Source of the DNA: Alphaproteobacteria bacterium
Lineage (GTDB): Bacteria; Pseudomonadota; Alphaproteobacteria; Micavibrionales; UBA2020
Assembly: GCA_004297545.1 (NCBI GenBank)
Contig: SCTB01000050.1
Location: 5,138 to 69,137 of the forward strand
Reading direction: 5' to 3'
DNA length: 64,000 bases
Both the position numbers and the translations under genes were made by a program. Under the pieces are notes generated by a model. The model did no database searches. It saw only the letters and a program-made list of their open reading frames with translations, and was not told the DNA's origin. Positions within the stretch are counted from its first letter, which is position 1; each line of letters starts with the position of its first letter. This document shows positions 1 through 56,343 of the stretch, piece by piece.

Positions 1-596
1 TCATGCAGGAAGCCGAAGGTGCGCGCGGGCGCGACATCGGCGCGGTAGTTATCTTCCTTGAAATGCAGCGTGAATTTCTGGCGGCCGATGGCCGGGCTCG
101 GGAAGGAAATCTCGAAGCCGAAATACTGGCTGTCGGCGGGCGACAGGAATACTTCCTTCTCACCCTCCTGATAGGAAACGGTTTTCTTGATGCGCAGGAC
201 CTTGCGGGCGGCGCGTTGTTTGGTCAGGCCCGCGCGCTCGATGGCAGCCACGAACTTCTGCGCGCTGCCGTCCATGATGGGCACTTCAGGCCCGTCGATT
301 TGAACAACGGCGTTATCAAGGCCCATGGCCGCGCAGGCCGATAGCAGGTGCTCGACGGTCGAAACCGTGACGCCGGCCTTGTTGGCAAGAACGGTGCAGA
401 GCCGGGTGTCGACGACATGATCCCATTTTGCAGGGACGGCATTGTCGCGGTCCTTGATGTCGGTGCGGATGAAAACGATGCCGGTTGAGGCAGGCGCGGG
501 CTCGACGGTGATGACGGTATTGATGCCGGAATGAAGGCCGACACCGATGAGCGTGAGCGACGATTTCAGCGTGTGCTGAGATGTGGACGTCAACAT
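1..596 (-). CDS. lpxC: UDP-3-O-acyl-N-acetylglucosamine deacetylase LpxC, N-terminal ~198 codons (3' end lies beyond the window start)
   Basis: Not in the ORF track because it runs off the edge. ATG at 596 on the minus strand. My translation reads MLTSTSQHTLKSSLTLIGVGLHSGINTVITVEP...STVEHLLSACAAMGLDNAVVQIDGPEVPIMDGSA...ARTFGFLH, which matches LpxC landmarks (GxGLHxG, TVEHL, EIPIMDGSA, ARTFGF). It lies downstream of ftsZ, as is common. Confidence 0.9.
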   Translation of the reverse strand, partial: MLTSTSQHTLKSSLTLIGVGLHSGINTVITVEPAPASTGIVFIRTDIKDRDNAVPAKWDHVVDTRLCTVLANKAGVTVSTVEHLLSACAAMGLDNAVVQIDGPEVPIMDGSAQKFVAAIERAGLTKQRAARKVLRIKKTVSYQEGEKEVFLSPADSQYFGFEISFPSPAIGRQKFTLHFKEDNYRADVAPARTFGFLH

Positions 597-778
597 TTTG
601 TGTGAAAAACCCTGATTGTTGAAGTTGTTAGGATATCTCCCCCACCTCTTAAGTAACAAATGCAAAGCACCGGCTGAAGTCACTCTTTGCGACAATGTGT
701 TACAAAATTAAGTTACTGATTTAACACCTGTTTTGGCATTTCCGGATTGTTTTCCGCCGCGCAGCGCAGCAAAATTAA

Positions 779-807
779 TTGACATAATATATATGATTGG
801 ATATTGT
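779..807 (+). promoter_or_regulatory. putative sigma70-like promoter (TTGACA-17 nt-TATTGT) for the 870 gene
   Basis: TTGACA at 779-784, a 17-nt spacer, and TATTGT at 802-807, in the AT-rich divergent intergenic region between lpxC and 870. Confidence 0.3.
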
Positions 808-869
808 CTTTTAATGGAAAATGAAGTGCTATAAACGGCATCGCAGCCATTTATGGACGAAACAGTGTT

Positions 870-1526
870 ATGAGCAGGATCGTGGCAATCTGGGGACCGA
901 GCCGTGAGGATGCGCCGCAGCCCGAGCCGCCGGCGCGCGATCAGGGAGAGCCCGACGAACGGGAACGGGCGCTCTATGAAGCCTATATGGCGCAGCAGCA
1001 GGCGATGGCGCAGCAGCAGCAAAAGCAAAAGCCCCCCGGCAAGGCCAAGCGGATCATCTTCGGCACGCTCGGGTTCCTGATGAACATGACGATGCGGATC
1101 ATCGGCGTCGGCCTGATCGTCGCCGGAGGCGGATTAAAGTTAGTCCAGCGCGCCTTTGGCGGCGGAAATAATAACGGGAGCAAAAAAATGAGTCTGAGAA
1201 GCGTGTTTTTAGGGGCGGCCCTGGTGGCCGGCGCAATGGTGGGCCCCGGCGTCTATCACATGACGCAGGGCAACGAGATCGTGCGCACGCGCGTGACTGG
1301 AAAGGTCATGGCGGACGCCAACGCGGAATTCCCGGGGCAGAAATATTTCATCTACACCAACCAGGGCAAGTTCGACACCTTCGGCGCCGTGGGTGGCGCG
1401 GACATCAAGGAAGGCTGCGTCTACGACTTCAACCTGAAGAGCGCGCGCCTACAGGCCTGGCCGCCCTCCTATTCGCGCAGCATCATCGGCTACAAGCCCG
1501 TGCCCGACGGCGGCTGCGCGCCGTAA
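870..1526 (+). CDS. hypothetical membrane protein (Gln-rich N-terminus, two hydrophobic segments)
   Basis: ATG start and GC-rich third codon positions. Hydrophobic stretches are IIFGTLGFLMNMTMRIIGVGLIVAGGGL and VFLGAALVAGAMVGPGV. I recognise no family. Confidence 0.7.
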   Translation: MSRIVAIWGPSREDAPQPEPPARDQGEPDERERALYEAYMAQQQAMAQQQQKQKPPGKAKRIIFGTLGFLMNMTMRIIGVGLIVAGGGLKLVQRAFGGGNNNGSKKMSLRSVFLGAALVAGAMVGPGVYHMTQGNEIVRTRVTGKVMADANAEFPGQKYFIYTNQGKFDTFGAVGGADIKEGCVYDFNLKSARLQAWPPSYSRSIIGYKPVPDGGCAP

Positions 1527-1534
1527 AAAATAAT

Positions 1535-1561
1535 GTCATTCCGGCGAAATCCAGGGGTGAC
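1535..1561. repeat. degenerate single copy of the REP-like palindromic element family (GTCATTCCGGCGAA...GGTGAC)
   Basis: gtcattccggcgaaatccaggggtgac lies between the convergent stops of 870..1526 and the desaturase. It resembles the copies at 23908, 34389 and 63022. Confidence 0.45.
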
Positions 1562-1570
1562 GAAAGCGTC

Positions 1571-2662
1571 TTACGCCGTCTTCAAATCGCTGAACGCGAC
1601 CATCTTCGATAAATCCTCGTCCCATAGGGACCAGCGGGTGCACTTCAGGCTCTCCCAAAGTGTCAGCCGGTTCATGCCCTGAAGCTCCGGGCTGTCTTTC
1701 AGGCATTGCTGCAGCCTGTAGTTCGGGATCAGGCTGCAGAGATGGTGGATATGGTGCAGCCCGATGTTCCCGGTGAACCAGTGTAAAACGCGGGGCAGCA
1801 CATAGTACGAGCTGCCCATGACTGCGGCCTCCGAAAAATTCCAGTCCTGGGTGCGCTTCCAGTGGGCGCGCTCGAACTGGTGCTGGATGAAGAACAGCCA
1901 GCCGCCCGCCCAGCTCGTTAAAATCACCACCGGCACGTAAAGAACGAGGAGCGGCGCCCAGCCGAAGGCCAGCGCCGCGAGGCCGTAAAAAACCACCAGC
2001 GCGGCATTGAGCGCGTGGATGCTGCGGCGGGCCACGGCGTCGGGCACGCAGGGGTATTTTTCGAGAAAGGATGCGGACTGCGTGGAGGGGATACGCTGGC
2101 CGATGAATGTGTTGAACGGCACCGCCAGCCCAAGCAGGAAAAAAGGATTACGGTAGAGGCGGTAGGCGAGGCGCTTCTTCGCGGGCAGCGCCTGGTATTC
2201 CTTCACCGTCAGCGTGTCGATGCTGCCGATGCCGCGGCGGTCCAGGTCGCCGGATCCAGCATGGTGCATGTTATGCGCGGTGCGCCAGAAGCCGTAGGGC
2301 GTGAAGGTGAAAACGCTGATCGCGCGGCCAGCCCAGTCGTTGGCGCGGCGCGATGGAAAAAACGAGCCGTGGCCGCAGTCATGCTGGATGATGAAGAGGC
2401 GCACCAGCAGCAGCGCCGCCAGAGGCGCCAGCAGGACGCAGCCCCAATAGACGCCGTGATGAAAAGCCGCCAGCATCAGGCCGAGTGCGCCGAAAAAGAG
2501 TCCCGCGGTTGTCGCGAGCTGGAACAGGGCGCGCCGGGTGTCGGGACTTTTATAGGCGTGACAGTGTGCAGCAAGGCGCCGGAGCAGCTGCCGGTCGCCC
2601 GATATCCCTGACGGAGTCAAAGATTCATTTTCGCGCAACGGAATGGAAATATCGTCGATCAA
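1571..2662 (-). CDS. membrane fatty acid desaturase family protein
   Basis: The three histidine boxes are present: HDCGH, HNMHH and HHIHH. There are multiple TM segments. The start is TTG, preceded by GGGGAGGGA. Confidence 0.9.
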   Translation of the reverse strand: MIDDISIPLRENESLTPSGISGDRQLLRRLAAHCHAYKSPDTRRALFQLATTAGLFFGALGLMLAAFHHGVYWGCVLLAPLAALLLVRLFIIQHDCGHGSFFPSRRANDWAGRAISVFTFTPYGFWRTAHNMHHAGSGDLDRRGIGSIDTLTVKEYQALPAKKRLAYRLYRNPFFLLGLAVPFNTFIGQRIPSTQSASFLEKYPCVPDAVARRSIHALNAALVVFYGLAALAFGWAPLLVLYVPVVILTSWAGGWLFFIQHQFERAHWKRTQDWNFSEAAVMGSSYYVLPRVLHWFTGNIGLHHIHHLCSLIPNYRLQQCLKDSPELQGMNRLTLWESLKCTRWSLWDEDLSKMVAFSDLKTA

Positions 2663-2879
2663 GATCCCTCCCCCAGAATCCTTAATGTAGCCCGTTTCAG
2701 TGTGAAGGGTAGACGGGCGGGGAGCAAACGGAATTTTCCTCCCGAAGGTGGATATATGGAGAAAAAATATTTTACTTAATGTGTTAAATTTGCGAGCAAT
2801 AAGAACCCAAGGGACGCCCTCCCGGGGTTTTTCAAAGTCACGGCGCCAACCAAGGCGGCCGGTTCTGCGGCGTCTTGAG

Positions 2880-3101
2880 GGCCGAGCTGGCCGCGGCGAC
2901 CGCCTGGTTTTCGTTCGCCGGCGTCTGCGGCATGGAAAATTCCCTGAACGTGAAGGTCAGCTGCCTGCCCTCCAGGAAGGGCTTGGGCTGAGCAGGCTGA
3001 AGCTCAGGCAATCCGTGCGCCTTGACGTGACGGGCGTCGAAAACCCGGTCTGGATCAACGGCAATGCCGACGGCATCTCGCGGGCGCTGCCGATTACGTG
3101 A
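2880..3101 (+). pseudogene. possible relic of a sensor histidine kinase C-terminus (KdpD-like HATPase_c end)
   Basis: The tail of ORF 2748..3101 reads KFPEREGQLPALQEGLGLSRLKL...DGISRALPIT. This resembles a decayed G2 box (GxGLGL) and kinase C-terminus directly abutting the kdpE-like fragment. There is no N-terminal kinase body. Confidence 0.3.
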
Positions 3102-3493
3102 TGAAACCCTTGCGCGAATCTGCAGGCCTTGTGACCCGCATGAAAACGGCTCTGCGTCTCAGCGACAGGGCGCAGGCGCCGGAAATGACCTTTAAAACGC
3201 GCGGGTTGAACGTCGATATCTGGCGCCGCCGCGTCACGCTGCACGGCCGCGATATTAAACTGACGCCGCTTGAATTCGATTTGCTCGCCCTTCTCGTGCG
3301 CCGTGCGGGGCAGGTGGTGACGCAATCTGAAATCATGAAAGAAGTCTGGGACGAAAGCCCCGAAAAACACGGCCACTACCTGCGCATCTACATCCAGCGC
3401 CTGCGCGAAAAACTCGGCGACGACCCGTTTAACCCGCAATATCTTTTCACCGAGCCGAAGATCGGGTATCGGCTGAATGCGGAGGGTTCCTGA
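3098..3493 (+). CDS. OmpR/KdpE-like winged-helix DNA-binding domain protein lacking a receiver domain (probably a truncated kdpE)
   Basis: LTPLEFDLLALLVRRAGQVVTQSEIMKEVW...HYLRIYIQRLREKLGDDPFNPQYLFTEPKIGYRL closely follows the E. coli KdpE output domain (HYLRIYMGHLRQKLEQDP...TETGIGYRF). Only the linker and wHTH are present. Confidence 0.7.
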   Translation: MMKPLRESAGLVTRMKTALRLSDRAQAPEMTFKTRGLNVDIWRRRVTLHGRDIKLTPLEFDLLALLVRRAGQVVTQSEIMKEVWDESPEKHGHYLRIYIQRLREKLGDDPFNPQYLFTEPKIGYRLNAEGS

Positions 3494-3555
3494 ACAGATA
3501 CAACCTTTTTCTTTTCCTCAACGCATGTTGAGAGAAGGGACGGAGCGAAAAGAAA

Positions 3556-3590
3556 AACCCCGGGAAATCATCCCGGGGTTCTTTGTGTTT
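3556..3590. terminator. bidirectional rho-independent terminator hairpin
   Basis: A 10-bp stem, aaccccggga/tcccggggtt, with loop aatca. It has an A-run upstream and a T-rich run downstream, between the convergent genes 3098..3493 (+) and 3603..4103 (-). Confidence 0.6.
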
Positions 3591-3602
3591 CAGGACAAAA
3601 TC

Positions 3603-4103
3603 TTACCGGCGGCCGCGCGGCTGCACCTTTTCGACCGTCACCGGGCGATAGGGCTTTTCGGCGTCGACAGTAACATGCAGATAGGGCTGGCCTGCGCCGA
3701 CCTTGCGGCCGTAACCGTTCCGCCCTTGCGTGACCGTGCATGCGATGTCGAGGCCCTTGCAGGTCTCGTCCAGTTTTTTGAAACCGGGCAGCGTTTCCAT
3801 GTTTACTTCGCCGAGGCCGCGCAGCGTCAGGCTAGCTTCCGAGGCCGAATAGCTGAAATCCGCCGATACTGACTGGCCGGCGTCGAGGGCGCGGGTGATT
3901 TCCGCGACTTTCTTCGGGATATCCGCCGCGACATCGTTGAACCACTTGCTCAAAGAGCCGCCGAGCGCGTCGCGCGCATCCTGCTCGCGCTGCTGTTCCT
4001 GCGAATCTTCGTCGGCGCGGCGGCGGGCCAGCGCATCGCGCAGCGCGTTGCCGTCCGGCTGGGTTTTGTCGGTGGAGTGAGGGGGTCTGCGGGGCTTGTA
4101 CAT
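3603..4103 (-). CDS. hypothetical protein (orphan, 166 aa)
   Basis: An internal ATG at 4103 (MYKPRRPP...) is preceded by AGGAG about 10 nt upstream. The longer ORF start at 4238 would run through the ftsZ terminator and the AT-rich promoter. GC3 is high. Confidence 0.65.
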   Translation of the reverse strand: MYKPRRPPHSTDKTQPDGNALRDALARRRADEDSQEQQREQDARDALGGSLSKWFNDVAADIPKKVAEITRALDAGQSVSADFSYSASEASLTLRGLGEVNMETLPGFKKLDETCKGLDIACTVTQGRNGYGRKVGAGQPYLHVTVDAEKPYRPVTVEKVQPRGRR

Positions 4104-4136
4104 GGCTTGGAGGCTCCTGTCATGAAATGAGGTTGC

Positions 4137-4165
4137 ATAATATGGCAATCGGGGTGCGATGCCAA
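4137..4165 (-). promoter_or_regulatory. putative sigma70-like promoter (TTGGCA-17 nt-TATTAT) for the 3603..4103 gene
   Basis: On the minus strand, TTGGCA (plus-strand tgccaa at 4160-4165), a 17-nt spacer, and TATTAT (plus-strand ataata at 4137-4142), about 35 nt upstream of the ATG. Confidence 0.35.
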
Positions 4166-4220
4166 GCGATTTATGGCATTTGTAAATATGCATTATGTAA
4201 ATAAATAAGCAGGGAAAAGA

Positions 4221-4249
4221 AAAACCCCGGGAGGTCATCCCGGGGTTTT
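4221..4249 (-). terminator. rho-independent terminator downstream of ftsZ
   Basis: A 12-bp stem, aaaaccccggga/tcccggggtttt, followed on the minus strand by a T-rich run. It lies 25 nt after the ftsZ stop. Confidence 0.65.
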
Positions 4250-4273
4250 CTATCGAAAGCGGAGTTTAAGCGT

Positions 4274-6055
4274 TTAATTCGCCTGGCGGCGCAGGAAAGC
4301 CGGGATGTCCAGCTCGTCCTCCGTGGATTTGCCGCCGTCCTCAACCGTGAGTCTGGTCGAGGTATCCGCTCTGGGCGCCGCAGCGGCGGGAGCAGGAGCC
4401 GTAACCTCCTTCTCCCTCTGCAGCGTGAAGCGTTCGAACAGTGACGGTGATTTTTTCGGCTGCTTCTCCGTCATGTCCATTTTCGGCGCTGCCAGCGTCT
4501 CGCCGTCGGCAAACAGGTCTGCTCCCGTCGCATGCCCTGCCGCGTGGCGCGGATCGACGGGCTTGGGCGGGATGAAGCTGTTGCCTTGCCTTGTTGCGCG
4601 CGGCTGCTGGGCCGTCGGCTGGTTGCGCTGGGGATAGTTCTGGGTGACGGGGGGCGTTGAGGCCCTTGTCGTCCAGTTATCCGCCTGCTGCTCGTCCAGC
4701 TTGCGGGCCGTGGCCGTCGCGGCGCCGTAGTCGGCGTTGGACGATGCATGGCCCATTTGCGGCTCGGGCGAGCGCTCCCATTCCTCCTGCACCGGCGGAC
4801 GCTGCGAGACAACCGGCTGCGCCGCTGCCGAAGCGGTGGGCTGGTAGGCCGGGCGTCCCTGCGCGTGGACGGGCAGGATCGCCGCGGGTATCGCCGAGGT
4901 CGTGCCGAAGTTATCGCGCGTGCGCGGCGCTGCGGCGGGCTGGCGCTGCTCGTAGGTGGCATAGCCGCCCGTGACCGGCGTCTTCACCGGCTGGGGTTGC
5001 GGCTGCTGCTGTTGCTGTTGCACGACGGGTCTGCGCTGGGGTTCGACCACATGCGTCGCGATGCCCGGGCGGAGCGACTGCGTGCCCGTGCCTTCGATGC
5101 CCGTGGCGACCACGGAAATGCGCATCTTGCCGTTCAGCGTGACGTCTTCGGTCGAGCCGAAGATGATATTCGCGTCGGGGTCGACTTCGTCGCGGATACG
5201 GTTGACGGCTTCGTCAACTTCGAACAGCGTGAGGTCGGTGCCGCCGATGACGTTGATGAGGACGCCGCGTGCGCCTTTCATCGAGACATCGTCGAGCAGC
5301 GGGTTGGAGATCGCGGCTTCGGCGGCCGCGACTGCGCGGCGCTCGCCTTCGCCCACGCCCGTGCCCATCATGGCCTTGCCCATTTCGGCCATCACGGCGC
5401 GAACATCGGCGAAGTCCAGGTTGATAAGGCCCGGCATGACCATCAGGTCGGTCACGCCGCGGACGCCCGATTGCAGAACCTCGTCCGCCATTTTAAAGGC
5501 GTCCGCGAAGGTTGTCTTCTCGTTCGCCACGCGGAACAGGTTCTGGTTCGGGATGATAATGAGGGTGTCGACGTGCTTTTGCAGCTCGTTGATGCCGTTT
5601 TCCGCCAGCTTCATACGATGCGTGCCCTCGAAATGGAAGGGCTTGGTGATCACGCCGATGGTCAGGATGCCGGATTCCCGCGCCGCCTGCGCGATGACGG
5701 GAGCAGCGCCTGTGCCTGTGCCGCCGCCCATGCCGGCGGTGACGAAGACCATGTTGGAGCCCTCGAGATAGGCCATGATTTCGTCGATGCTTTCTTCAGC
5801 AGCGGCACGGCCGATTTCGGGATTCGCCCCGGCGCCCAGTCCGCGCGTGACGTTCACGCCCAGCTGGATTTTATGCGGCGACGAATTTCCTTCAAGCGCC
5901 TGCGCGTCGGTATTGCAGACGAGGAATTCGCAGCCTTCGAGATTCGAGTTGATCATGTTATTCACAGCATTGCCGCCGGCCCCGCCGACGCCAATCACCG
6001 TGATCTTTGGTTTCAGACGATTTGTCTGTGATTGCATTCTTATGTTGATTGCCAT
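4274..6055 (-). CDS. ftsZ: cell division GTPase FtsZ (long alpha-type linker)
   Basis: Tubulin signature [11 protein letters not shown]-terminal [15 protein letters not shown], a Q/P-rich linker, and the C-terminal peptide [14 protein letters not shown]. Confidence 0.98.
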
Positions 6056-24837: not shown

Positions 24838-25212
24838 AAAACCAGAGAGCCTGTAAGCCGGGTTCTGTCCGTTCTTGCGAACGGGGCAATCATTCATCTG
24901 GGACGATGATCGCTCATCGCCTCATGCGACCTACCCGGAAAGCGGGACTGAAAATATTCCCTGCAACCGAAGTTGCGTCGCTTTCCCTATTTGGCCTTGC
25001 TCCCGGTGGGGTTTTCCGTGCCGTTCCTGTTGCCAGCAACGCGGTGCGCTCTTACCGCACCTTTTCACCCTTACCGCATTTCTGCGGCGGTATATTTTCT
25101 GTGGCACTTTCCCTGGGGTCGCCCCCGCCGGATGTTATCCGGCACCGTATTTTCATGGAGCCCGGACTTTCCTCACGCTTTAAGCATGCGATTACCCGGC
25201 TCTCTGGTTTGA
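24838..25212 (-). ncRNA. rnpB: RNase P RNA, bacterial type A
   Basis: The reverse complement contains GAGGAAAGTCCGGGCTCCA, GGTAAGGGTGAAAAGGTGCGGTAAGAGCGCACC, GAGCAAGGCCAAATAGGG, CAGATGAATGA and ACAGAACCCGGCTTA. P1 pairs accagagagcc with ggctctctggt. The ends are approximate. Confidence 0.93.
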
Positions 25213-49454: not shown

Positions 49455-50222
49455 ATGCCGACGGTAGCGGGCCCCGCCCAGAACGTCATAACCGACATGA
49501 AAATATCCCCGGAAGGGGCGCGGCGCTTCGTCGTCAAGCTGTCATGGACGCCGCGCGAGCTGCCCAAGCTCAATGTCGATGTAGCCGCCCCCCCGAAGGA
49601 AGGGGATACAACCGGAAAAATCGTGTTTTTCATGATGAAGCCGTTCGACCTGCTGCGCATCCTCTTTCTGTCGATCGTCAAGCTCATGAGTTTCGGGATG
49701 TATGCGAGCAAGGCGCGCCGGGACGTCGATGCCGACGGGCGCGATACGACGGCCGATCAGTTCGACCTCGACCTCGACTGCTATATCTTCGACGGAAACA
49801 TGATGCTCAAGTGCGTTATCGGCACGGAAGGCGACGCGCTGCTGATCGAAGGCAGCAAAAAGGTCTACCATTCCGGCGACGACCAGAGCGGCATGGCGGG
49901 CGAGCATATTTTCGTCGAGACGCAGGGGCTTCCGGAAGGTTATCAGAACTTCTTCTTTGTGGTGCGCAGCGACTGCAAATACAGTCTGGACCAGTTCGTC
50001 AATCCCCTGATCCGCCTGGCTGACGGGAAAACGGACGAAAACGTCCTTCAGAACACGCTTATCCCGGCGGAGCAGATGATACCGAAAGCGTTCAACTACG
50101 CCTTCTGTCATGTCTTCCGCGACGGCGATGCCTGGCGTTTCCGCAACCTCGACGCCTATCAGGGCGACGCCGTGGAATGGGAAATGTTCCTTCCCTCTCT
50201 CGTCATCAAGCAGGCCGCCTGA
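49455..50222 (+). CDS. TerD-fold domain protein with a large hydrophobic insertion (paralog 1)
   Basis: FVVKLSW, DLDLDCYIFD, VYHSGDDQSG, FFFVVRS, IRLAD and FRDGDAWRFRNLD follow TerD-domain motif order. The ATG is 2 nt after the gatB stop, and the Shine-Dalgarno GGAGGA lies inside gatB. Confidence 0.75.
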   Translation: MPTVAGPAQNVITDMKISPEGARRFVVKLSWTPRELPKLNVDVAAPPKEGDTTGKIVFFMMKPFDLLRILFLSIVKLMSFGMYASKARRDVDADGRDTTADQFDLDLDCYIFDGNMMLKCVIGTEGDALLIEGSKKVYHSGDDQSGMAGEHIFVETQGLPEGYQNFFFVVRSDCKYSLDQFVNPLIRLADGKTDENVLQNTLIPAEQMIPKAFNYAFCHVFRDGDAWRFRNLDAYQGDAVEWEMFLPSLVIKQAA

Positions 50223-50224
50223 GC

Positions 50225-50995
50225 ATGGCGACTGTCAGCGGCCCCCGTAAGGGACTGACGTCGCCGCTGCCGGTCCCGGCCGGAGCAGCCGGGCGCTTCC
50301 TTGTCGGGTTGTCGTGGGCGCCCAAGGAAGAAGGGCCGAAAATCAGGCCGGCAATTCCCCCCTTAAAAGATGAACAAGGCCATTACGACACGTTCTATTT
50401 CTTCAAGCTCCCCTGGTTCCTCCTTCGCGCCGCCGTCATGGGCGTGGTTTCGATCGTAGCGCCGGCATTGCGCCGGCACGGCATCGGGGTGTCAAGGGAG
50501 GGGCGGCCGAAGAACCCCGATCCGCATGACCTGGATCTCTTCTGCTATATCCTGGACCATGATATGCAGGTGTTGCAGCTGGTCGGCCCGAAGAACGCCG
50601 AGCTGATCGATCCGGGAAAGAAGATCTATCACAGCGGCGAAAACCAGACCGGGCGCGACGCGACGGACGCCGAGCAGATTTTCCTCGAGACGCGCGGGCT
50701 TCCGCCCGAATACCACTACTTCTTTTTCGTCGTCAAAAGCGCCAACCGCAACACGATGGGAGATATACCAGACGGCAACGTGCGCCTTGCCGACAGCGCG
50801 GCGAATGCGAACCTCCTTCAGAACCTGATGACGGAGCGCGCGGCGCCGCCCGGCAATTCCTTCGGTTACGTTTTCTGCAGCGTTTTCCGCGACGGCGACG
50901 GGTGGTCGTTCCGCAACATCGATTCCTTCGCGGGCAAGGAAGTGGACTGGCACCTGCTGCTGCAGGCGCTGGACTTGCAGAAGGGGCTGGCATGA
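50225..50995 (+). CDS. TerD-fold domain protein with a large hydrophobic insertion (paralog 2)
   Basis: FLVGLSW, DLDLFCYILD, IYHSGENQTGRDATDAEQ, FFFVVKS, VRLAD, FRDGDGWSFRNID. The ATG at 50225 follows the paralog 1 stop by 2 nt. Confidence 0.75.
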   Translation: MATVSGPRKGLTSPLPVPAGAAGRFLVGLSWAPKEEGPKIRPAIPPLKDEQGHYDTFYFFKLPWFLLRAAVMGVVSIVAPALRRHGIGVSREGRPKNPDPHDLDLFCYILDHDMQVLQLVGPKNAELIDPGKKIYHSGENQTGRDATDAEQIFLETRGLPPEYHYFFFVVKSANRNTMGDIPDGNVRLADSAANANLLQNLMTERAAPPGNSFGYVFCSVFRDGDGWSFRNIDSFAGKEVDWHLLLQALDLQKGLA

Positions 50996-51669
50996 AGGGG
51001 CTTATCGTTTTCGACGTCGACGGCACGTTTCTCGATTCATATACCCTGTTCGAAAAGATCATCCTCGACTATTCGCGGGCGCAGGGGCTCCCCAAGCCGG
51101 CGCTGGAGGCTATCCGCTTCGGCTACAGCGACCCGCACAATCATGATTTCAAGTGGGGGGTCTCGCGAACCGACCAGGTGGAGCATCTTATTTCCATCTT
51201 CAACCTGATGGACGACTGGTCGATGTCGGGCGAGCACACGAAGACACCGGGGCTTTTCGAAGGAGTCGAGGACGCGCTCAAGCATCTGAAGGACCTTGGT
51301 CATACGCTGGCCATCGTGACTTCGAAGCCGGAGGCGCCGCTGCTGCATCTGCTTGAATACCACAAGGTTGACGGCCTGTTCTCCGCGCACCGCAACTGGG
51401 ACGACATCGCAAGGCGCGGGGAGAAGGAAAAACCGGAACCCGATATGCTGCTGTCCGTCATGCGCGACCTGAAATTTACGCCTGAGGAAACGATCATGGT
51501 GGGGGACACGGTGATGGACGTCAAAATGGGCCGCGCCGCGAAAACCCACACGATTGGCGTCGCCTGGGGCATGCACCCGGTCAGCTACCTGACCGAGGCC
51601 GGCGCGCATCATATCGTCGACACGCATTTCAAGCATGTCGTCTCGACCGTGAAAAAGATTTTCAGTTAG
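50992..51669 (+). CDS. HAD-superfamily phosphatase (subfamily IA, phosphoglycolate phosphatase-like)
   Basis: VFDVDGT (motif I), IVTSK (II), KPEPD (III), VGDTVMD (IV). The start forms an ATGA overlap with the upstream TerD-like gene. Confidence 0.88.
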   Translation: MKGLIVFDVDGTFLDSYTLFEKIILDYSRAQGLPKPALEAIRFGYSDPHNHDFKWGVSRTDQVEHLISIFNLMDDWSMSGEHTKTPGLFEGVEDALKHLKDLGHTLAIVTSKPEAPLLHLLEYHKVDGLFSAHRNWDDIARRGEKEKPEPDMLLSVMRDLKFTPEETIMVGDTVMDVKMGRAAKTHTIGVAWGMHPVSYLTEAGAHHIVDTHFKHVVSTVKKIFS

Positions 51670-52241
51670 GGCTTCGGTCCCTTGCCGCGATGGTGGAAGA
51701 ATTTGGCCGCATCGGCCGGTTTTACGGCGGCGCGGCAGCGCGGCAGGTCCTTTATCTCGTCGACAAAACTTTCGGGGCATAGCAGAGAAATAAACCCGCG
51801 GTCGCCGTCAACATGGCGCACCAGCACCTGGCCGCCGACGCCCTTTGCGAGCGCGAGGTCGAGGATGTCGTCCTGCAGGCGCCAGGTGGCGGAGGGGAGC
51901 GACGGGTCCCTGGCCTCCTGCGCCAGCACGCGCGTGAGGTCTTTCGGGTTGACGGGCCCGGCGTGTCCTGCGCGGAATGTGGGGGCGCCCTTCCATTCGC
52001 GGCTGTCGCCGTAAAGGGGCAGGGCTTTCACCTTGTCTATGAATTCGGGGGTGCATTCCAGCAGCAGGCGCGGCGCGCCTTCCACCATGTTGTCCACATA
52101 GCGGTGGAAATACACCTCCTCGCCTTCCTGCTGCGCGAGGTCGAATATCTGGGCGCGCAGCTCGATATTCTTTTTGACGGTCTGCTCGAAATTTCCGGAT
52201 TTGGCGTAATCCAGTTCGACGGTGTAAACAACGGCGGGCAT
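51666..52241 (-). CDS. hypothetical protein, two copies of the small repeated domain (family member D4)
   Basis: 191 aa. It has LLLECTPEFIDKVKALP in the first half and ISLLCPESFVDEIKDLP in the second. AAAGGA lies before the ATG. Its stop overlaps the HAD stop by 4 nt. Confidence 0.7.
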   Translation of the reverse strand: MPAVVYTVELDYAKSGNFEQTVKKNIELRAQIFDLAQQEGEEVYFHRYVDNMVEGAPRLLLECTPEFIDKVKALPLYGDSREWKGAPTFRAGHAGPVNPKDLTRVLAQEARDPSLPSATWRLQDDILDLALAKGVGGQVLVRHVDGDRGFISLLCPESFVDEIKDLPRCRAAVKPADAAKFFHHRGKGPKP

Positions 52242-52256
52242 GAAAATCCTTTAAGG

Positions 52257-52604
52257 TTATCTGTTCGTGGCGGGGGAGCGGTGGCGGGTTTCCGTACGCT
52301 GCTGCGGCACGATATCGGGGCGCTCCTCTGTCTTTTCGACGAAGGGCAGCGCGCGCACCCTGTCCGCGACGGAATCGGAGCACTCAAGCAGGGTCTTGCG
52401 CTCGTTGGCGATCAGCGTGCTGCCGCCGACTTCGTGCAGGAGGGCGTTCTGGATGAGGAATTCCAGCAGGTTTTTGTGGCAGTCGCGCGCGTGGCGCATG
52501 AAGCGGTGAAAGCCGAGGCTTTTGCTGAGGTCGTTTTCTTCGACGAGGTTATCGGGCAAGGCGTAGGTGATCTCGAAAGTCTTCATCACAGGCGGCGGGT
52601 TCAA
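52257..52604 (-). CDS. hypothetical protein, small repeated-domain family (D3)
   Basis: FEITYAL...TLLECSDSVADRVRALPFVEKTEE. The TTG start at 52604 has GGGAG 6 nt upstream. An alternative ATG lies at 52586. Confidence 0.65.
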   Translation of the reverse strand: MNPPPVMKTFEITYALPDNLVEENDLSKSLGFHRFMRHARDCHKNLLEFLIQNALLHEVGGSTLIANERKTLLECSDSVADRVRALPFVEKTEERPDIVPQQRTETRHRSPATNR

Positions 52605-52622
52605 TTCTTTCTCCCTGAAAGG

Positions 52623-52958
52623 TTACCGGTATCTGCGGCCCGAGGTCCGTTTCCCGGCAGGAACGGCTTTGCGGTCGGAAGGCTTCTCGACATACTGCAC
52701 GCCCTCGAGCTTCTTCACCTTGGCGGCGAATTTCTCGGGCGCGTTCATGAAGAAGATGCCAAGCTTGTTCAGCGACCCGTCATCGAAGGAGACCTTGACC
52801 TTGGAAGAGCAGCCTTCCTCTTCCGCCAGTTCCTTGATGCGCTTTGCAGCGGCCTCCATGTCCTCGGTGAAGTCGGTCTTGCGCGAGTACTTCGCGCGCA
52901 CGCTGACCGAGTACAGGAACGTCTTGGCTTTTTCGTTGAAATCCTTCTTTGGCGGCAT
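52623..52958 (-). CDS. hypothetical protein, small repeated-domain family (D2)
   Basis: FLYSVSV...GIFFMNAPEKFAAKVKKLEGVQYVEKP. ATG with an AGAGGT Shine-Dalgarno and strongly GC-rich third positions. Confidence 0.7.
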   Translation of the reverse strand: MPPKKDFNEKAKTFLYSVSVRAKYSRKTDFTEDMEAAAKRIKELAEEEGCSSKVKVSFDDGSLNKLGIFFMNAPEKFAAKVKKLEGVQYVEKPSDRKAVPAGKRTSGRRYR

Positions 52959-52967
52959 GATGTACCT

Positions 52968-53270
52968 CTAAAGCCTGAATTTCGGGGGAAGGTAACGGGC
53001 CTTGTCTTCCTCGATGGAGGAAACGAAGCTTTGCCCCTTCAGCTTTTCGGCGACTTCATCGGTGCACACAAGCATTAGGCCAATCTGGTGAGGCACGGGC
53101 ACGATCGCCTTGACCTGGCCTTCCAGGCCTTCGCGCGCCAGGAATTCACGCAGCTCGCGCGTCGCCAGTTTGCGCGCATCGTCCATCTGCTGCATGATCT
53201 CAAGCGGCGTCGTGCACCAGCCGCTGGAGGGCTTCAGGTTCACGGGATAGGTCAGTTTAAACTGCTTCAT
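52968..53270 (-). CDS. hypothetical protein, small repeated-domain family (D1)
   Basis: FKLTYPV...GLMLVCTDEVAEKLKGQSFVSSIEED. I chose the ATG at 53270. The ORF track starts at a TTG at 53291. Confidence 0.65.
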   Translation of the reverse strand: MKQFKLTYPVNLKPSSGWCTTPLEIMQQMDDARKLATRELREFLAREGLEGQVKAIVPVPHQIGLMLVCTDEVAEKLKGQSFVSSIEEDKARYLPPKFRL

Positions 53271-53358
53271 CGGGCGTATATTTTTCCGCAATCTTTGTGG
53301 TGAGCCGCCGGTATCAGACGCGACTCGAATCTGCTCAAAGGTTTAAAAAGAATGCCAT

Positions 53359-53387
53359 AATCTATAAGACATGAGCCTTGCTGTCAA
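53359..53387 (-). promoter_or_regulatory. putative promoter (TTGACA-17 nt-TAGATT) for the D1-D4 operon
   Basis: Minus-strand TTGACA (plus-strand tgtcaa at 53382-53387) and TAGATT (plus-strand aatcta at 53359-53364). Confidence 0.3.
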
Positions 53388-53530
53388 TTTTCTTGACCCG
53401 GCCGGCAATTTGCCATAAATCTGTAAAAACGATGCGCCAAGCCTTAAAAAACGCCATATAACAGCCACATACGCCCGCAACGGACACGGCTGTGCTTTTC
53501 TTCCCGTTGCCGGGACGTTAGTATCCCGCC

Positions 53531-55685: not shown

Positions 55686-55779
55686 GGAGACGTGGCCGAG
55701 TGGCTGAAGGCGGCGGTTTGCTAAACCGTTATACTGGTGTTAGCCGGTATCCAGGGTTCGAATCCCTGCGTCTCCGCCA
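55686..55779 (+). tRNA. tRNA-Ser (anticodon GCU), CCA encoded
   Basis: Acceptor stem ggagacg/cgtctcc, anticodon loop TTGCTAA, a long variable arm, T-loop GGTTCGAATCC, and a 3' GCCA. Confidence 0.93.
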
Positions 55780-55860: not shown

Positions 55861-56343
55861 ATGAGCGACAAGCCCTATCAGGTCAGGATCTTCCTGAAAA
55901 AAGAATTTGCCGAAGCCGTCACGCGCGACGCGCCGCCCGCCGAAGTCAAGCCGCTCCTGGATATCCTGGCGCGCCACGACGCCAGCATCGACCACAACCA
56001 GTTCGATGAATTCTCCAAATTCGTGACCTGGGCGGAAGCGAACCTCGACAAGACCCATTTCGACGACGAAGACAAAAAGCAGCAGATGAAAAACCTGCTC
56101 ACCCTGACCAAAGGCTCGCTGGCGAACGAGGAAAAGGCCAGCTACTTCAAGCGCGAATTCACGCTCGCCATCAAAGGAAAGTCGCAGTTCTCGGGCGCAG
56201 AGGCCGACGCGCTGATCAAAGACCTCGAAACCCTGGGCGACGGCCCCATCATCACCAGCGGCAAAGGCTTTGTCCCCGGCAAAAGCTACGAAGTCCCGCC
56301 CGTGCGCAAAAGCTACGTGCCGAAGCGGCACCCGGGGACGTAA
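55861..56343 (+). CDS. hypothetical protein (160 aa), possibly distantly related to the D1-D4 domain family
   Basis: An ATG start. YQVRIFL... and FTLAIKGKSQFSGAEADALIKDLETLGDGPI loosely follow the strand, helix, then xxEAxxLIKxL pattern. Confidence 0.6.
   Translation: MSDKPYQVRIFLKKEFAEAVTRDAPPAEVKPLLDILARHDASIDHNQFDEFSKFVTWAEANLDKTHFDDEDKKQQMKNLLTLTKGSLANEEKASYFKREFTLAIKGKSQFSGAEADALIKDLETLGDGPIITSGKGFVPGKSYEVPPVRKSYVPKRHPGT

Follow-up and report, generated by a model that had tools for sequence, protein, structure and literature searches.

Four small genes, G1 to G4, lie on the minus strand at positions 51666–53291 of the 64-kb window (the whole stretch of DNA analyzed, 64,000 nucleotides) and together contain five copies of one protein domain. 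The five copies are homologous and belong to an unannotated family of narrow distribution. The fold is likely to be similar to that of the subtilase prodomain/MEROPS I9 inhibitors, and the relationship is probably one of remote homology; the domain would be a very divergent relative of that fold or, failing that, a close mimic of its structure. By analogy with free-standing members of the I9 group, G1–G4 may be independent proteins that resemble prodomains, act as binders or inhibitors and carry basic, proline-containing tails, a reading to which we assign a probability of roughly 0.4. The operon is lineage-specific, with one conserved strong sigma-70 promoter and four small cytoplasmic paralogues, one of which is a tandem fusion.

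Table 1. Positions of the small genes, their domains and flanking elements in the window.
Feature	Positions	Strand	Remarks
Sigma-70-type promoter TTGACA-N17-TAGATT	53359–53387	-	10/12 matches in scan
5′ leader	53271–53352	-	nearly invariant among close relatives
G1	52968–53270	-	100 aa, one domain; mechanical ORF reaches TTG at 53291
G2	52623–52958	-	111 aa, one domain, Cys-less
G3	52257–52604	-	115 aa from TTG (GGGAG before it), or 109 aa from ATG 52586; one domain
G4	51666–52241	-	191 aa, two domains in tandem
G4 domain a (G4a)	51993–52235	-	residues 3–83
G4 domain b (G4b)	51723–51938	-	residues 102–173
Stop-codon overlap of G4 and convergent HAD gene (50902–51669, +)	51666–51669	.	4 nt, ORF coordinates

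The most probable start of G1 is the ATG at 53270, since its homologues are all 100 aa long and open with MKQ[FY]K. The genes are separated by gaps of 9, 18 and 15 nt. An earlier note on this DNA described tight packing with a Shine-Dalgarno sequence for each gene; the packing is as described, and Shine-Dalgarno-like sequences are present before G2 (GAGG), G3 (GGGAG) and G4 (AAGGA), but that of G1 is weak. No further copy of the domain is found in the 64-kb window.

The four minus-strand genes are real and under purifying selection. Differences between the window and the related locus L004 at codon positions 1, 2 and 3 of the minus-strand frames number 24, 13 and 114, and those between the window and L005 number 82, 79 and 197. 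The longest open frame of the region is a 421 aa plus-strand ORF (51813–53078), and the earlier note held that its conservation or expression would speak against its own reading. The four minus-strand ORFs would in that case be shadows of the longer frame. However, this ORF is broken into segments of 227 and 199 aa in L004, a 91% relative, and of 235 and 181 aa in L005, and shows no family match. The gathering of substitutions at third positions of the minus-strand frames also argues against it, as do the 13–50 conserved homologue clusters of each minus-strand protein, and the 60% G+C content of the window favors long antisense ORFs. That the plus-strand frame is the real gene is thus extremely improbable.

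The promoter proposed in the earlier note is present and is kept in relatives, where AAATTGACA...TAGATTATGGCATTC is found 5′ of the first small gene (G1 or G2) in L004, L005, L008, L010, L003 and L001. The leader that follows hardly varies among the window, L004 and L005 despite many third-position differences in the coding DNA. It gives no Rfam match, no stable fold (z = +0.5) and no consensus structure. At the other end of the operon, the HAD gene whose stop codon overlaps that of G4 shows a HAD_2 match (E = 7e-28). The overlap, which had been pointed out before, agrees with the ORF coordinates and is also present in L004 and in the contig of the homologue P0001, and the scan gave no terminator-like site where the two genes meet.

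Profile-profile comparison (hhalign) links the copies as one domain family, as had been suggested from the letters of the sequence. P-values are 2e-11 for G1–G3, 4e-8 for G4a–G4b, 6e-8 for G2–G4b, 8e-6 for G3–G4a, 1.4e-4 for G2–G4a and 3.9e-4 for G1–G4b. All pairs are collinear and form the chain G1–G3–G4a–G4b–G2, and MAFFT gives a collinear alignment of all copies. G3 is a paralogue of G1, and the alignment of the G4 halves with each other agrees with the two copies claimed for that gene. When family-specific HMMs were run against 1,941 ORFs from the window and related loci, the cross-matches were operon members only; no unrelated ORF scored under E ~0.09. Searches of Pfam, NCBIfam and PDB sequences gave no significant match for the domain, which the earlier note had likewise been unable to place. 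In a set of 1.84 billion representatives the family accounts for about 55 clusters. None of these clusters has a name, and the hosts are all uncultured Alphaproteobacteria or MAGs labelled Micavibrio, a genus of predatory bacteria. Gene sets at related loci are G1-G2-G3-G4, G1-G2-G3, G2-G4 or G2 alone, and two-fold tandem and six-fold domain fusions occur elsewhere in the family.

The paralogues differ in their conserved residues. In G1, Cys19 and Cys69 are invariant. G3 carries a conserved stripe on helix 1, KSLxFHRFMRHARxCH, with H27 and H37 invariant and C36 and C69 nearly so; its shared Cys lies within ..EC[ST]. G4 has 13 homologue clusters, in which H46, C63, H93, H143, D145, C155 and C169 are invariant. 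G2 is the most conserved paralogue, with 39 homologue clusters at 45–94% identity and an invariant stretch GIFFMNAPEKFAAKVKKLxGVxxVEKP, and across an equal range of relatives is far better conserved than G4. Of the paralogues it alone occurs at all related loci that were read, and it therefore probably has an important role there. G2 has a pI of 9.8 and Lys/Arg-rich termini that are modelled at pLDDT below 50. After each domain comes a family-specific C-terminal tail, basic and proline-containing. G1 shows IEED after beta4 and then RYLPPKF[RK][LIM], and the tails as a group read ...YLPPKFRL, ...GRRYR, ...RRPPxxGR and ...GPKP. In G2 the tail is strongly basic in 39/39 homologues and ends in Arg in 33 of them. 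Outside the tails, G1, G3 and G4 are neutral or acidic. No signal peptide was seen in the small-gene proteins, as judged by eye.

The AlphaFold model of G4 (pLDDT 86.7, pTM 0.80) shows the predicted βαββαβ, ferredoxin-like pattern twice, with E4–10, H18–39, E43–48, E59–63, H65–71 and E77–82 in G4a, and E102–107, H115–132, E140–145, E150–154, H157–164 and E169–173 in G4b. The G2 model, of low confidence (pLDDT 63), has the same order of elements. This is also the secondary-structure pattern of the I9 family (Pfam PF05922). The top Foldseek matches of the G2 model in the PDB are the PCSK9 prodomain, the subtilisin BPN′ prosegment (1spb_P), pro-subtilisin E, Tk-propeptide and MORF proteins, with probability 0.9–1.0, rmsd of about 3 Å over 77–80 columns and TM values, taken relative to the prodomain, of up to 0.6. 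The E-values are weak (0.04–0.3), and the NGN domains of NusG/Spt5 score nearly as well. For the whole G4 chain, the best but weak matches are proteins that also consist of two fused ferredoxin-like domains: chlorite dismutase/HemQ, the ABM-like 3f44 and Cas6f/Csy4. Membership of G4 in the dimeric alpha+beta-barrel group was rejected, the best Foldseek E-value being 1.3e-3 with TM ~0.25 and rmsd 14–17 Å, and there were no sequence matches. The haem or active-site motifs of the barrel proteins are not present in G4.

Resemblance to I9-type domains, only vaguely entertained in the earlier note, proves to be the best-supported placement, although it stays below threshold in Pfam. The window proteins give no match to Inhibitor_I9 (PF05922), and no member of the family reaches the gathering score; the best is P0139 (E = 0.0048, 18.0 bits against a cut-off of 21.2), and two more members show sub-threshold matches. 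Inhibitor_I9 is nevertheless the sole Pfam family that recurs among remote members. Other sub-threshold matches are to families of the same fold, namely Fervidolysin_NPro-like and MORF_dom, the latter in 7 of 32 G2 members, in P0123 and in one remote member. A superfamily alignment of 67 sequences matches a 7-sequence I9 profile in hhalign with a probability of 80.9%, P = 1.2e-5 and a score of 32.3, the confident stretch covering about 30 columns (beta3, alpha2, beta4). The I9 profile itself retrieves PDB I9 chains at 1e-20 to 1e-31. As controls, 100 column-shuffled I9 profiles score 8.0 on average and 12.6 at most, and the reversed profile scores 8.5. The accepted same-fold pair I9–MORF, used as a yardstick, scores 29.7. 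Against other ferredoxin-like families the superfamily alignment scores 19.0 for HMA (in a non-equivalent register), 13.3 for S6, 11.5 for NGN and 10.0 for RRM.

The likeness to I9 extends to a shared pattern, h-h-h-x-[C/L]-[ST/N]-x-x-x-h-x-x-h-K-x-x-P-x-V-x-x-[VI]-E-x-[DE], over beta3-alpha2-beta4, and to a plan in which the domain is followed by a C-terminal tail. The G1 segment ...LVC-TDEVAEKLKGQSFVSS-IEED aligns without gaps to the subtilisin BPN′ prosegment. The acidic cap after beta4, [VI]-E-x-[DE], is IEED in G1 and is situated 16 residues past the end of beta3, a distance also seen in BPN′, PCSK9 and Tk-subtilisin; G3 and P0139 show the same spacing. The cap is partial in G3 (TEER) and G2 (VEKP) and absent from both G4 domains. 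In I9 proteins about 6 residues follow the cap as a C-terminal tail, which fills the S4–S1 sites of the protease. Of the remote members, P0139 and P0126 terminate precisely 6 residues past the cap, as I9 prodomains do, whereas the window proteins carry 11–25 residues there. A hydrophobic-hydrophobic-Pro element (YLP, AVP, IVP) is found at +6 to +8 after the cap. Prodomain-type inhibitors have the capping pair and the C-terminal tail as their known functional elements (PMC6993865). The window proteins differ from typical I9 proteins in their cytoplasmic location, their four-paralogue operon, their longer, basic and proline-rich tails, the incomplete or missing cap in three of the paralogues, and scores that fall under the Pfam threshold for all members.

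The earlier note listed a conserved Cys motif as part of the domain plan. All five quoted instances are present as written, but a role for the Cys as a functional center is unlikely: G2 lacks it, and other family members have A, M or R at this position (the P0104 repeats and P0141). The equivalent position is L, V or M in solved I9 prodomains, Cys in MORF9 and MORF2, and Ala in MORF1. Because I9 proteins have Leu there and MORF proteins Cys or Ala, this Cys, which lies where beta3 ends, is probably structural and buried.

Two other readings of the proteins draw on the same folds and residues. MORF proteins are plant organellar RNA-editing factors that bind PPR proteins; their domain (MORF/RIP, PF21864) has the same I9-like fold and resembles the window domain in a Cys-Thr or Cys-Glu at the end of beta3 (GFQCTIDEE in MORF9, GFGCEIDEE in MORF2). 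Membership in that family was tried and rejected, since the Pfam matches are sub-threshold (best E = 0.012) and the hhalign score of 18.0 (P = 0.012) compares with a shuffle maximum of 18.1; nothing here points to a PPR partner. The NGN domain of NusG/Spt5 is likewise an alpha/beta domain of similar size, which Foldseek superposes on the G2 model at an rmsd of 3.0–3.4 Å across about 80 columns, but its profile score equals background and neither a KOW partner nor NGN motifs are found. Small basic proteins of this NusG-NGN/MORF fold, associated with RNA, ribosomes or transcription, with G2 as a lineage-specific housekeeping protein and G1, G3 and G4 as accessories, would fit the basicity of G2 and its tails, its conservation and presence at every locus, the place of NGN and MORF among the top fold matches, the MORF_dom hits in G2 members and a near-consensus promoter suited to high expression. 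The G2 profile also weakly matches NusA and KRR1 in the PDB (E 0.08–0.4). These two matches are not significant, however, the NGN and MORF profile scores lie within the shuffle range while that of I9 does not, the other three paralogues are not basic besides their tails, and no RNA-binding motif was identified, so that we regard such a role as rather unlikely. Somewhat less likely still are metal, redox or cofactor proteins that act through the conserved Cys and His, perhaps as a hetero-oligomer or barrel-like sheet pair, and are linked to TerD or to the DAO/AKR genes. The invariant residues of G4, G3 and G1 given above point this way, as does the fact that the best fold matches of G4 (chlorite dismutase/HemQ, 3f44) bind haem or other cofactors and that the operon sits between TerD-HAD and DAO-AKR throughout the clade. 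On the other hand, none of those matches reaches E ≤ 0.001, the HMA match is out of register, the shared Cys is missing or replaced as described, known metal motifs, CxxC among them, were not seen, and the neighboring genes are separate transcription units without which family members also occur.

The same neighborhood bears on a coupling of the operon to the convergent TerD-TerD-HAD genes, either by antisense or transcriptional interference over the overlapping stop codons or as parts of one stress-response system. The junction described above favors this, and G2 adjoins an HAD gene at each of the G2 loci read, including those with identity as low as 50%. The block gatCAB-TerD-HAD/small genes/DAO-AKR is syntenic throughout the clade, however, and because it also holds the housekeeping genes gatCAB, this order of genes resembles general synteny within a single clade. 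Some relatives have additional genes, a DCC1-like one and one for a sulfotransferase, placed between G4 and HAD or between HAD and TerD, and the operon has its own conserved promoter. Co-occurrence with TerD/HAD, for which the earlier note suggested a check elsewhere, is confined to this clade; family members beside unrelated genes, with neither TerD nor HAD as neighbor, are P0104 (L013), P0113 (L014) and the one on the P0010 contig. Coupling is judged very unlikely. On the P0010 contig, the G4 homologue is followed by three tandem serpin genes, which we count as context for a protease-inhibitor reading.

The preferred reading, that of stand-alone prodomain-like proteins, has precedents. Free-standing mimics of I9 prodomains include POIA1, yeast PBI2, Arabidopsis SPI-1, Plasmodium SUB1-ProM and TgMIC5. 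Most bacterial subtilases are secreted, and here the small-gene proteins lack a recognizable signal peptide, which stands against the inhibitor model. By analogy with the first four mimics, G1–G4 may be tight protein binders, the most likely role being that of an inhibitor or chaperone of serine proteases; protease binding as such is a tentative and somewhat doubtful assignment. The domain would dock on its partner and the tail, with its conserved hydrophobic-hydrophobic-Pro 6–8 residues past the acidic cap and basic residues after it, would occupy a substrate-like groove, the paralogues presenting differing tails. No S8 or S1 catalytic motifs were found in ORFs of more than 200 aa in the 64-kb window and 12 related loci (L001–L012). 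Further points against the inhibitor model are the conservation of G2, strongest on helix 2 and beta4 and not obviously on the sheet face used by I9, the invariant His, Cys and Asp residues of G3 and G4, which it leaves unexplained, and G4 itself, which lacks the cap and finds its best fold matches among tandem ferredoxin-like barrels.

The known I9 members include small free-standing proteins that lack sequence similarity to their prodomain models, and the well-characterized stand-alone prodomain mimics have so far come from fungi, plants and apicomplexan parasites (PMC6993865). If the placement is right, the family described here is an unannotated bacterial branch of the I9 fold, free-standing and organized as an operon of paralogues, other parts of the family having tandem and six-fold fusions. 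It is conceivable, though improbable, that the clade expanded this branch into a constitutive cytoplasmic set whose diversified basic, proline-rich tails thread the active sites of several proteases and resist cleavage, forming a multi-specific intracellular protease-safety system, or that the proteins carry short proline-rich basic peptides in the manner of proline-rich antimicrobial peptide precursors. The family is small, the clade poorly studied and the fold common; the finding therefore offers a firm starting point for defining a Pfam-type family and is not a field-changing surprise. If true, a bacterial, cytoplasmic, multi-paralogue version of such proteins would add to the means by which cells are known to restrain proteases and might yield new specific inhibitors.

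The open reading frames of four tightly packed minus-strand genes, here G1 to G4, are found behind a TTGACA-17-TAGATT promoter, as the earlier note had described. The intergenic gaps G1-G2, G2-G3 and G3-G4 are 9, 18 and 15 nt, and Shine-Dalgarno-like sequences GAGG, GGGAG and AAGGA precede G2, G3 and G4, respectively. The ATG used for G1 is the likely start since all homologues are 100 aa long and begin with MKQ[FY]K. The promoter (AAATTGACA-N17-TAGATTATGGCATTC) is near-consensus and is kept in related loci. The small-gene set is shown to be one transcription unit with a clade-conserved promoter. The leader, approximately 85 nt, is nearly invariant in close relatives, exceeding the conservation of coding DNA, and carries the motif TTCGAGTCGCG. 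It displays no Rfam match, no stable fold (MFE z-score +0.5) and no consensus structure, therefore a riboswitch or structured leader is not supported. It may serve as an operator, or as a leader to which a protein binds.

Coordinates of the small-gene set and of other features (window positions unless a locus or contig is named)
Feature	Sequence	Position	Strand	Remark
G1	window	52968-53291	minus	100 aa counted from ATG at 53270
G2	window	52623-52958	minus	111 aa
G3	window	52257-52604	minus	115 aa, TTG start after GGGAG; in-frame ATG at 52586
G4	window	51666-52241	minus	191 aa, two domains (G4a, G4b)
Promoter	window	53387-53359	minus	
Leader	window	53271-53400 (with the promoter)	minus	
Antisense ORF	window	51813-53078	plus	421 aa, opposite G1-G4
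TerD ORF	window	49455-50222	plus	
TerD ORF	window	50177-50995	plus	
ORF right after tRNA-Ser	window	55861-56343	plus	160 aa
RNase P RNA class A	window	24838-25207	minus	Rfam 328.8 bits
tRNA-Ser(GCT)	window	55686-55779	plus	
Membrane protein, ~290 aa	L001	6531-7424		
Membrane protein, ~290 aa	L003	8583-9437		
Membrane protein, ~290 aa	L008	5589-6485		
Membrane protein, ~290 aa	L010	5547-6410		
Membrane protein, ~290 aa	L012	407-1258		
P0104	L013	8001-10055		684 aa
P0010 and serpin genes	contig JGI 3300071358	290-5153		serpins of 430, 444 and 450 aa on the same strand

Orthologous loci were taken from public assemblies: L004 (G4 91% identical), L005/L006 (65%), and L001/L002, L003 and L007 (about 50%); L008-L012 were retrieved via G2. 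In the minus-strand frames the window and L004 differ at 24, 13 and 114 first, second and third codon positions, and the window and L005 at 82, 79 and 197. Such a third-position excess is characteristic of purifying selection acting on the minus-strand frames. The earlier note had raised the possibility that the long antisense ORF is the conserved frame, but L004 carries this ORF in two pieces of 227 + 199 aa, and L005 in two of 235 + 181 aa. It has no homologues, and no family match in Pfam and NCBIfam scans. The G+C content of the window is 60%, thus long antisense ORFs are expected, and the ORF was rejected as an artefact of high G+C. Judged from the sequences, the four minus-strand ORFs are genuine genes, whereas the antisense ORF is not one.

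BLASTP among the five domain pieces shows a clear link for G1-G3 only, and family alignments were therefore built from homologues, with 13 clusters for G4, 39 for G2 and 50 for G1 and G3. Profile-profile comparison gives P = 2e-11 for G1-G3, 6e-8 for G2-G4b, 4e-8 for G4a-G4b, 8e-6 for G3-G4a, 1.4e-4 for G2-G4a and 3.9e-4 for G1-G4b. All of these alignments are collinear, at equivalent positions, and MAFFT aligns the families end to end. Specificity was controlled by running each family HMM against all 1,941 ORFs of 50 aa or more from the window and loci; cross-matches are exclusively to other operon members, with no unrelated ORF below E of about 0.09. The homology of the five copies proposed in the earlier note is borne out by these P-values together with the HMM control. 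No further copy of the domain was found in the 64-kb window.

[quoted passage not shown] Neither Pfam nor NCBIfam gives a significant match for G1-G4 or the antisense ORF, and PDB sequence searches with four profiles yield nothing significant; weak NusA and KRR1 PDB matches of G2 were judged noise. When 126 family sequences were scanned one by one against Pfam, all matches were sub-threshold. Among the remote members Inhibitor_I9 is the sole Pfam family to recur, with P0139 as the top match (E = 0.0048, 18 bits vs a cut-off of 21.2). MORF_dom, of the same fold, appears sub-threshold in 7 of 32 G2 sequences and two others, Fervidolysin_NPro-like in one sequence, and DUF4911 recurs in G4b with E of at least 0.04. 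The Foldseek matches of the G2 model (pLDDT 63) are headed by the PCSK9 prodomain, the BPN' prosegment 1spb_P, pro-subtilisin E, the Tk-subtilisin propeptide and MORF proteins (probability 0.9-1.0, rmsd about 3 A over 77-80 columns, E-values 0.04-0.3), with NusG NGN domains nearly equal to prodomains in score. The G4 model gives weak matches only, to tandem ferredoxin-like proteins.

An I9 profile of seven prodomain/inhibitor sequences, which retrieves PDB I9 chains at 1e-20 to 1e-31, was aligned by hhalign with a 67-sequence superfamily alignment (probability 80.9%, P = 1.2e-5, score 32.3). The scores of 100 column-shuffled I9 profiles have a mean of 8.0 and a maximum of 12.6, and the reversed profile scores 8.5. 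HMA, RRM, NGN and S6 score 19.0, 10.0, 11.5 and 13.3 with provisional control sequences; those used for I9 and MORF were confirmed in the PDB, except PBI2. In calibration the accepted same-fold pair I9-MORF scores 29.7 vs 18.0 for superfamily-MORF. The comparisons with MORF, NGN, RRM, HMA and S6 were set aside as at or near background. A separate built-in profile comparison of the superfamily with I9 gives 73.5%. By direct sequence comparison, the G1 segment ...LVC-TDEVAEKLKGQSFVSS-IEED matches BPN' without gaps, and its 16-residue spacing is common to G1, BPN', PCSK9, Tk-subtilisin, G3 and P0139. Prodomain-type inhibitors use the acidic pair after beta4, [VI]-E-x-[DE], for helix capping (PMC6993865). 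Homology of the family with I9 is plausible on these comparisons. The I9 resemblance suggested in the earlier note is likely at the level of the fold; formal membership fails, the Pfam threshold not being reached, and the family is best described as a variant of the prodomain/I9-like fold. PADLOC and PHROGs scans show nothing beyond a marginal match of G3 to the PADLOC E1-E2 model (G3 residues 48-111, the Cys-containing half of the domain, vs model positions 138-201 of 589), rejected as chance because of its low score (15.7 bits, E = 0.00098).

The motif Cys is situated at the end of beta3, immediately ahead of the helix 2 N-cap. The Cys motif is present in several copies, as had been noted, but is unlikely to be a functional centre: the position is Asn in G2 and Ala, Met or Arg in some other members. 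Solved prodomains display Leu, Val or Met at this position, and MORF proteins Cys (MORF9 and MORF2) or Ala (MORF1). Thus the Cys is most likely a buried structural residue, neither catalytic nor metal-binding.

Each family carries its own conserved C-terminal tail, basic and proline-containing: RYLPPKF[RK][LIM] in G1, ...AVPAxxRxSGRRYR in G2 (Arg-terminated in 33 of 39 sequences), ...RRPPxxGR in G3 and ...GPKP in G4. In G1, G2 and G3 a hydrophobic-hydrophobic-Pro element lies 6-8 residues past the [VI]-E-x-[DE] position and the chain then continues. The remote members P0139 and P0126 stop exactly six residues past this motif, an ending that resembles those of prodomains.

G1-G4 are four paralogous proteins built from one domain, with no signal peptide by eye. 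Free-standing prodomain mimics are known, e.g. POIA1, PBI2, SPI-1 and SUB1-ProM (PMC6993865). By analogy, the domains would dock on another protein, a serine protease being the most likely partner, and the tail would sit in the substrate groove; distinct tails would confer distinct specificities, and Pro-Pro and Pro-rich stretches would perhaps resist cleavage. Taken whole, this explanation of G1-G4 is tentative, somewhat short of even odds, and binding to a protease specifically is more tentative still. The sole contextual support for a protease theme is P0010, a homologue of G4 at 53% identity, behind which three serpin genes lie in tandem where HAD and TerD would otherwise stand. Bacteria seldom have serpins, and these are the sole protease-related neighbour seen across the family. 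However, regex scans of the window and loci for S8/S1 active-site and serpin motifs found none, hence no subtilase or S1 protease nearby; the tails are long, the cap motif is missing from G4, and the strongest conservation of G2 falls on helix 2 and beta4. The inhibitor analogy also leaves residues invariant in G3 (H27, R31, R34, H37) and G4 (H46, H93, H143, D145, C155, C169) unexplained, and from this pattern G3 and G4 may instead bind a ligand through them.

The stop codon of G4 overlaps that of the convergent HAD-hydrolase gene by 4 nt. The convergence on a TerD-TerD-HAD unit seen earlier is real, and this arrangement recurs in relatives. Two TerD-domain genes and gatB lie upstream of HAD, and an FAD oxidoreductase (DAO) and an aldo/keto reductase form the opposite flank. 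The entire block including gatCAB is syntenic across the clade, some relatives having extra genes at the operon/HAD junction or between HAD and TerD, and some family members occur in unrelated neighbourhoods. Co-occurrence with TerD/HAD looks like clade-wide synteny, and functional coupling of the operon to these genes is not supported.

The two TerD ORFs overlap by 46 nt and each carries a strongly hydrophobic stretch ahead of the TerD domain (FFMMKPFDLLRILFLSIVKLMSFGMYA and FYFFKLPWFLLRAAVMGVVSIVAPAL), which looks like a membrane-inserted segment, unexpected for TerD proteins. In more distant relatives a conserved multi-pass membrane protein with no Pfam match is found between DAO and the promoter of the small genes. 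The window and its closest relatives lack this protein, and there DAO faces the operon directly. The only Rfam/tRNA features in the window are an ordinary RNase P RNA and an ordinary tRNA-Ser(GCT). The ORF right after the latter has no Pfam match, and a 160-aa Pfam-less gene is found at the equivalent position in a contig of a 93%-identical relative.

A search of 1.84 billion representative proteins with the superfamily profile yields 59 at E <= 0.001. Five are spurious repeat proteins and were discarded: P0103, P0125 and P0150 (ankyrin-repeat), P0134 (repeat-rich, surface-protein-like) and P0142. The remainder are one-domain proteins of 94-137 aa, two-domain proteins of 190-263 aa and P0104, which contains six tandem copies of the domain. 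P0104, from an Alphaproteobacteria MAG, is flanked by two peptidyl-prolyl isomerase genes and a homogentisate dioxygenase gene, with no TerD/HAD nearby. Scanning metagenome contigs with the G4 alignment gave no match. Tblastn found no family match in plasmids and phages; thus this is not a mobile-element family. G1-G2-G3-G4 is found in the window, L004, L005 and the contigs of P0001 and P0005, G1-G2-G3 in L008 and L010, G2-G4 in L001, L003 and L007, and G2 alone in L012. G2 is the constant member of the clade and by far the most conserved (92% identity between L005 and the window, vs 65% for G4). The hosts are uncultured Alphaproteobacteria MAGs, in one case "Micavibrio sp.", and all members are named "hypothetical protein". 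The family is thus unannotated, narrowly distributed and organised as an operon of paralogues.
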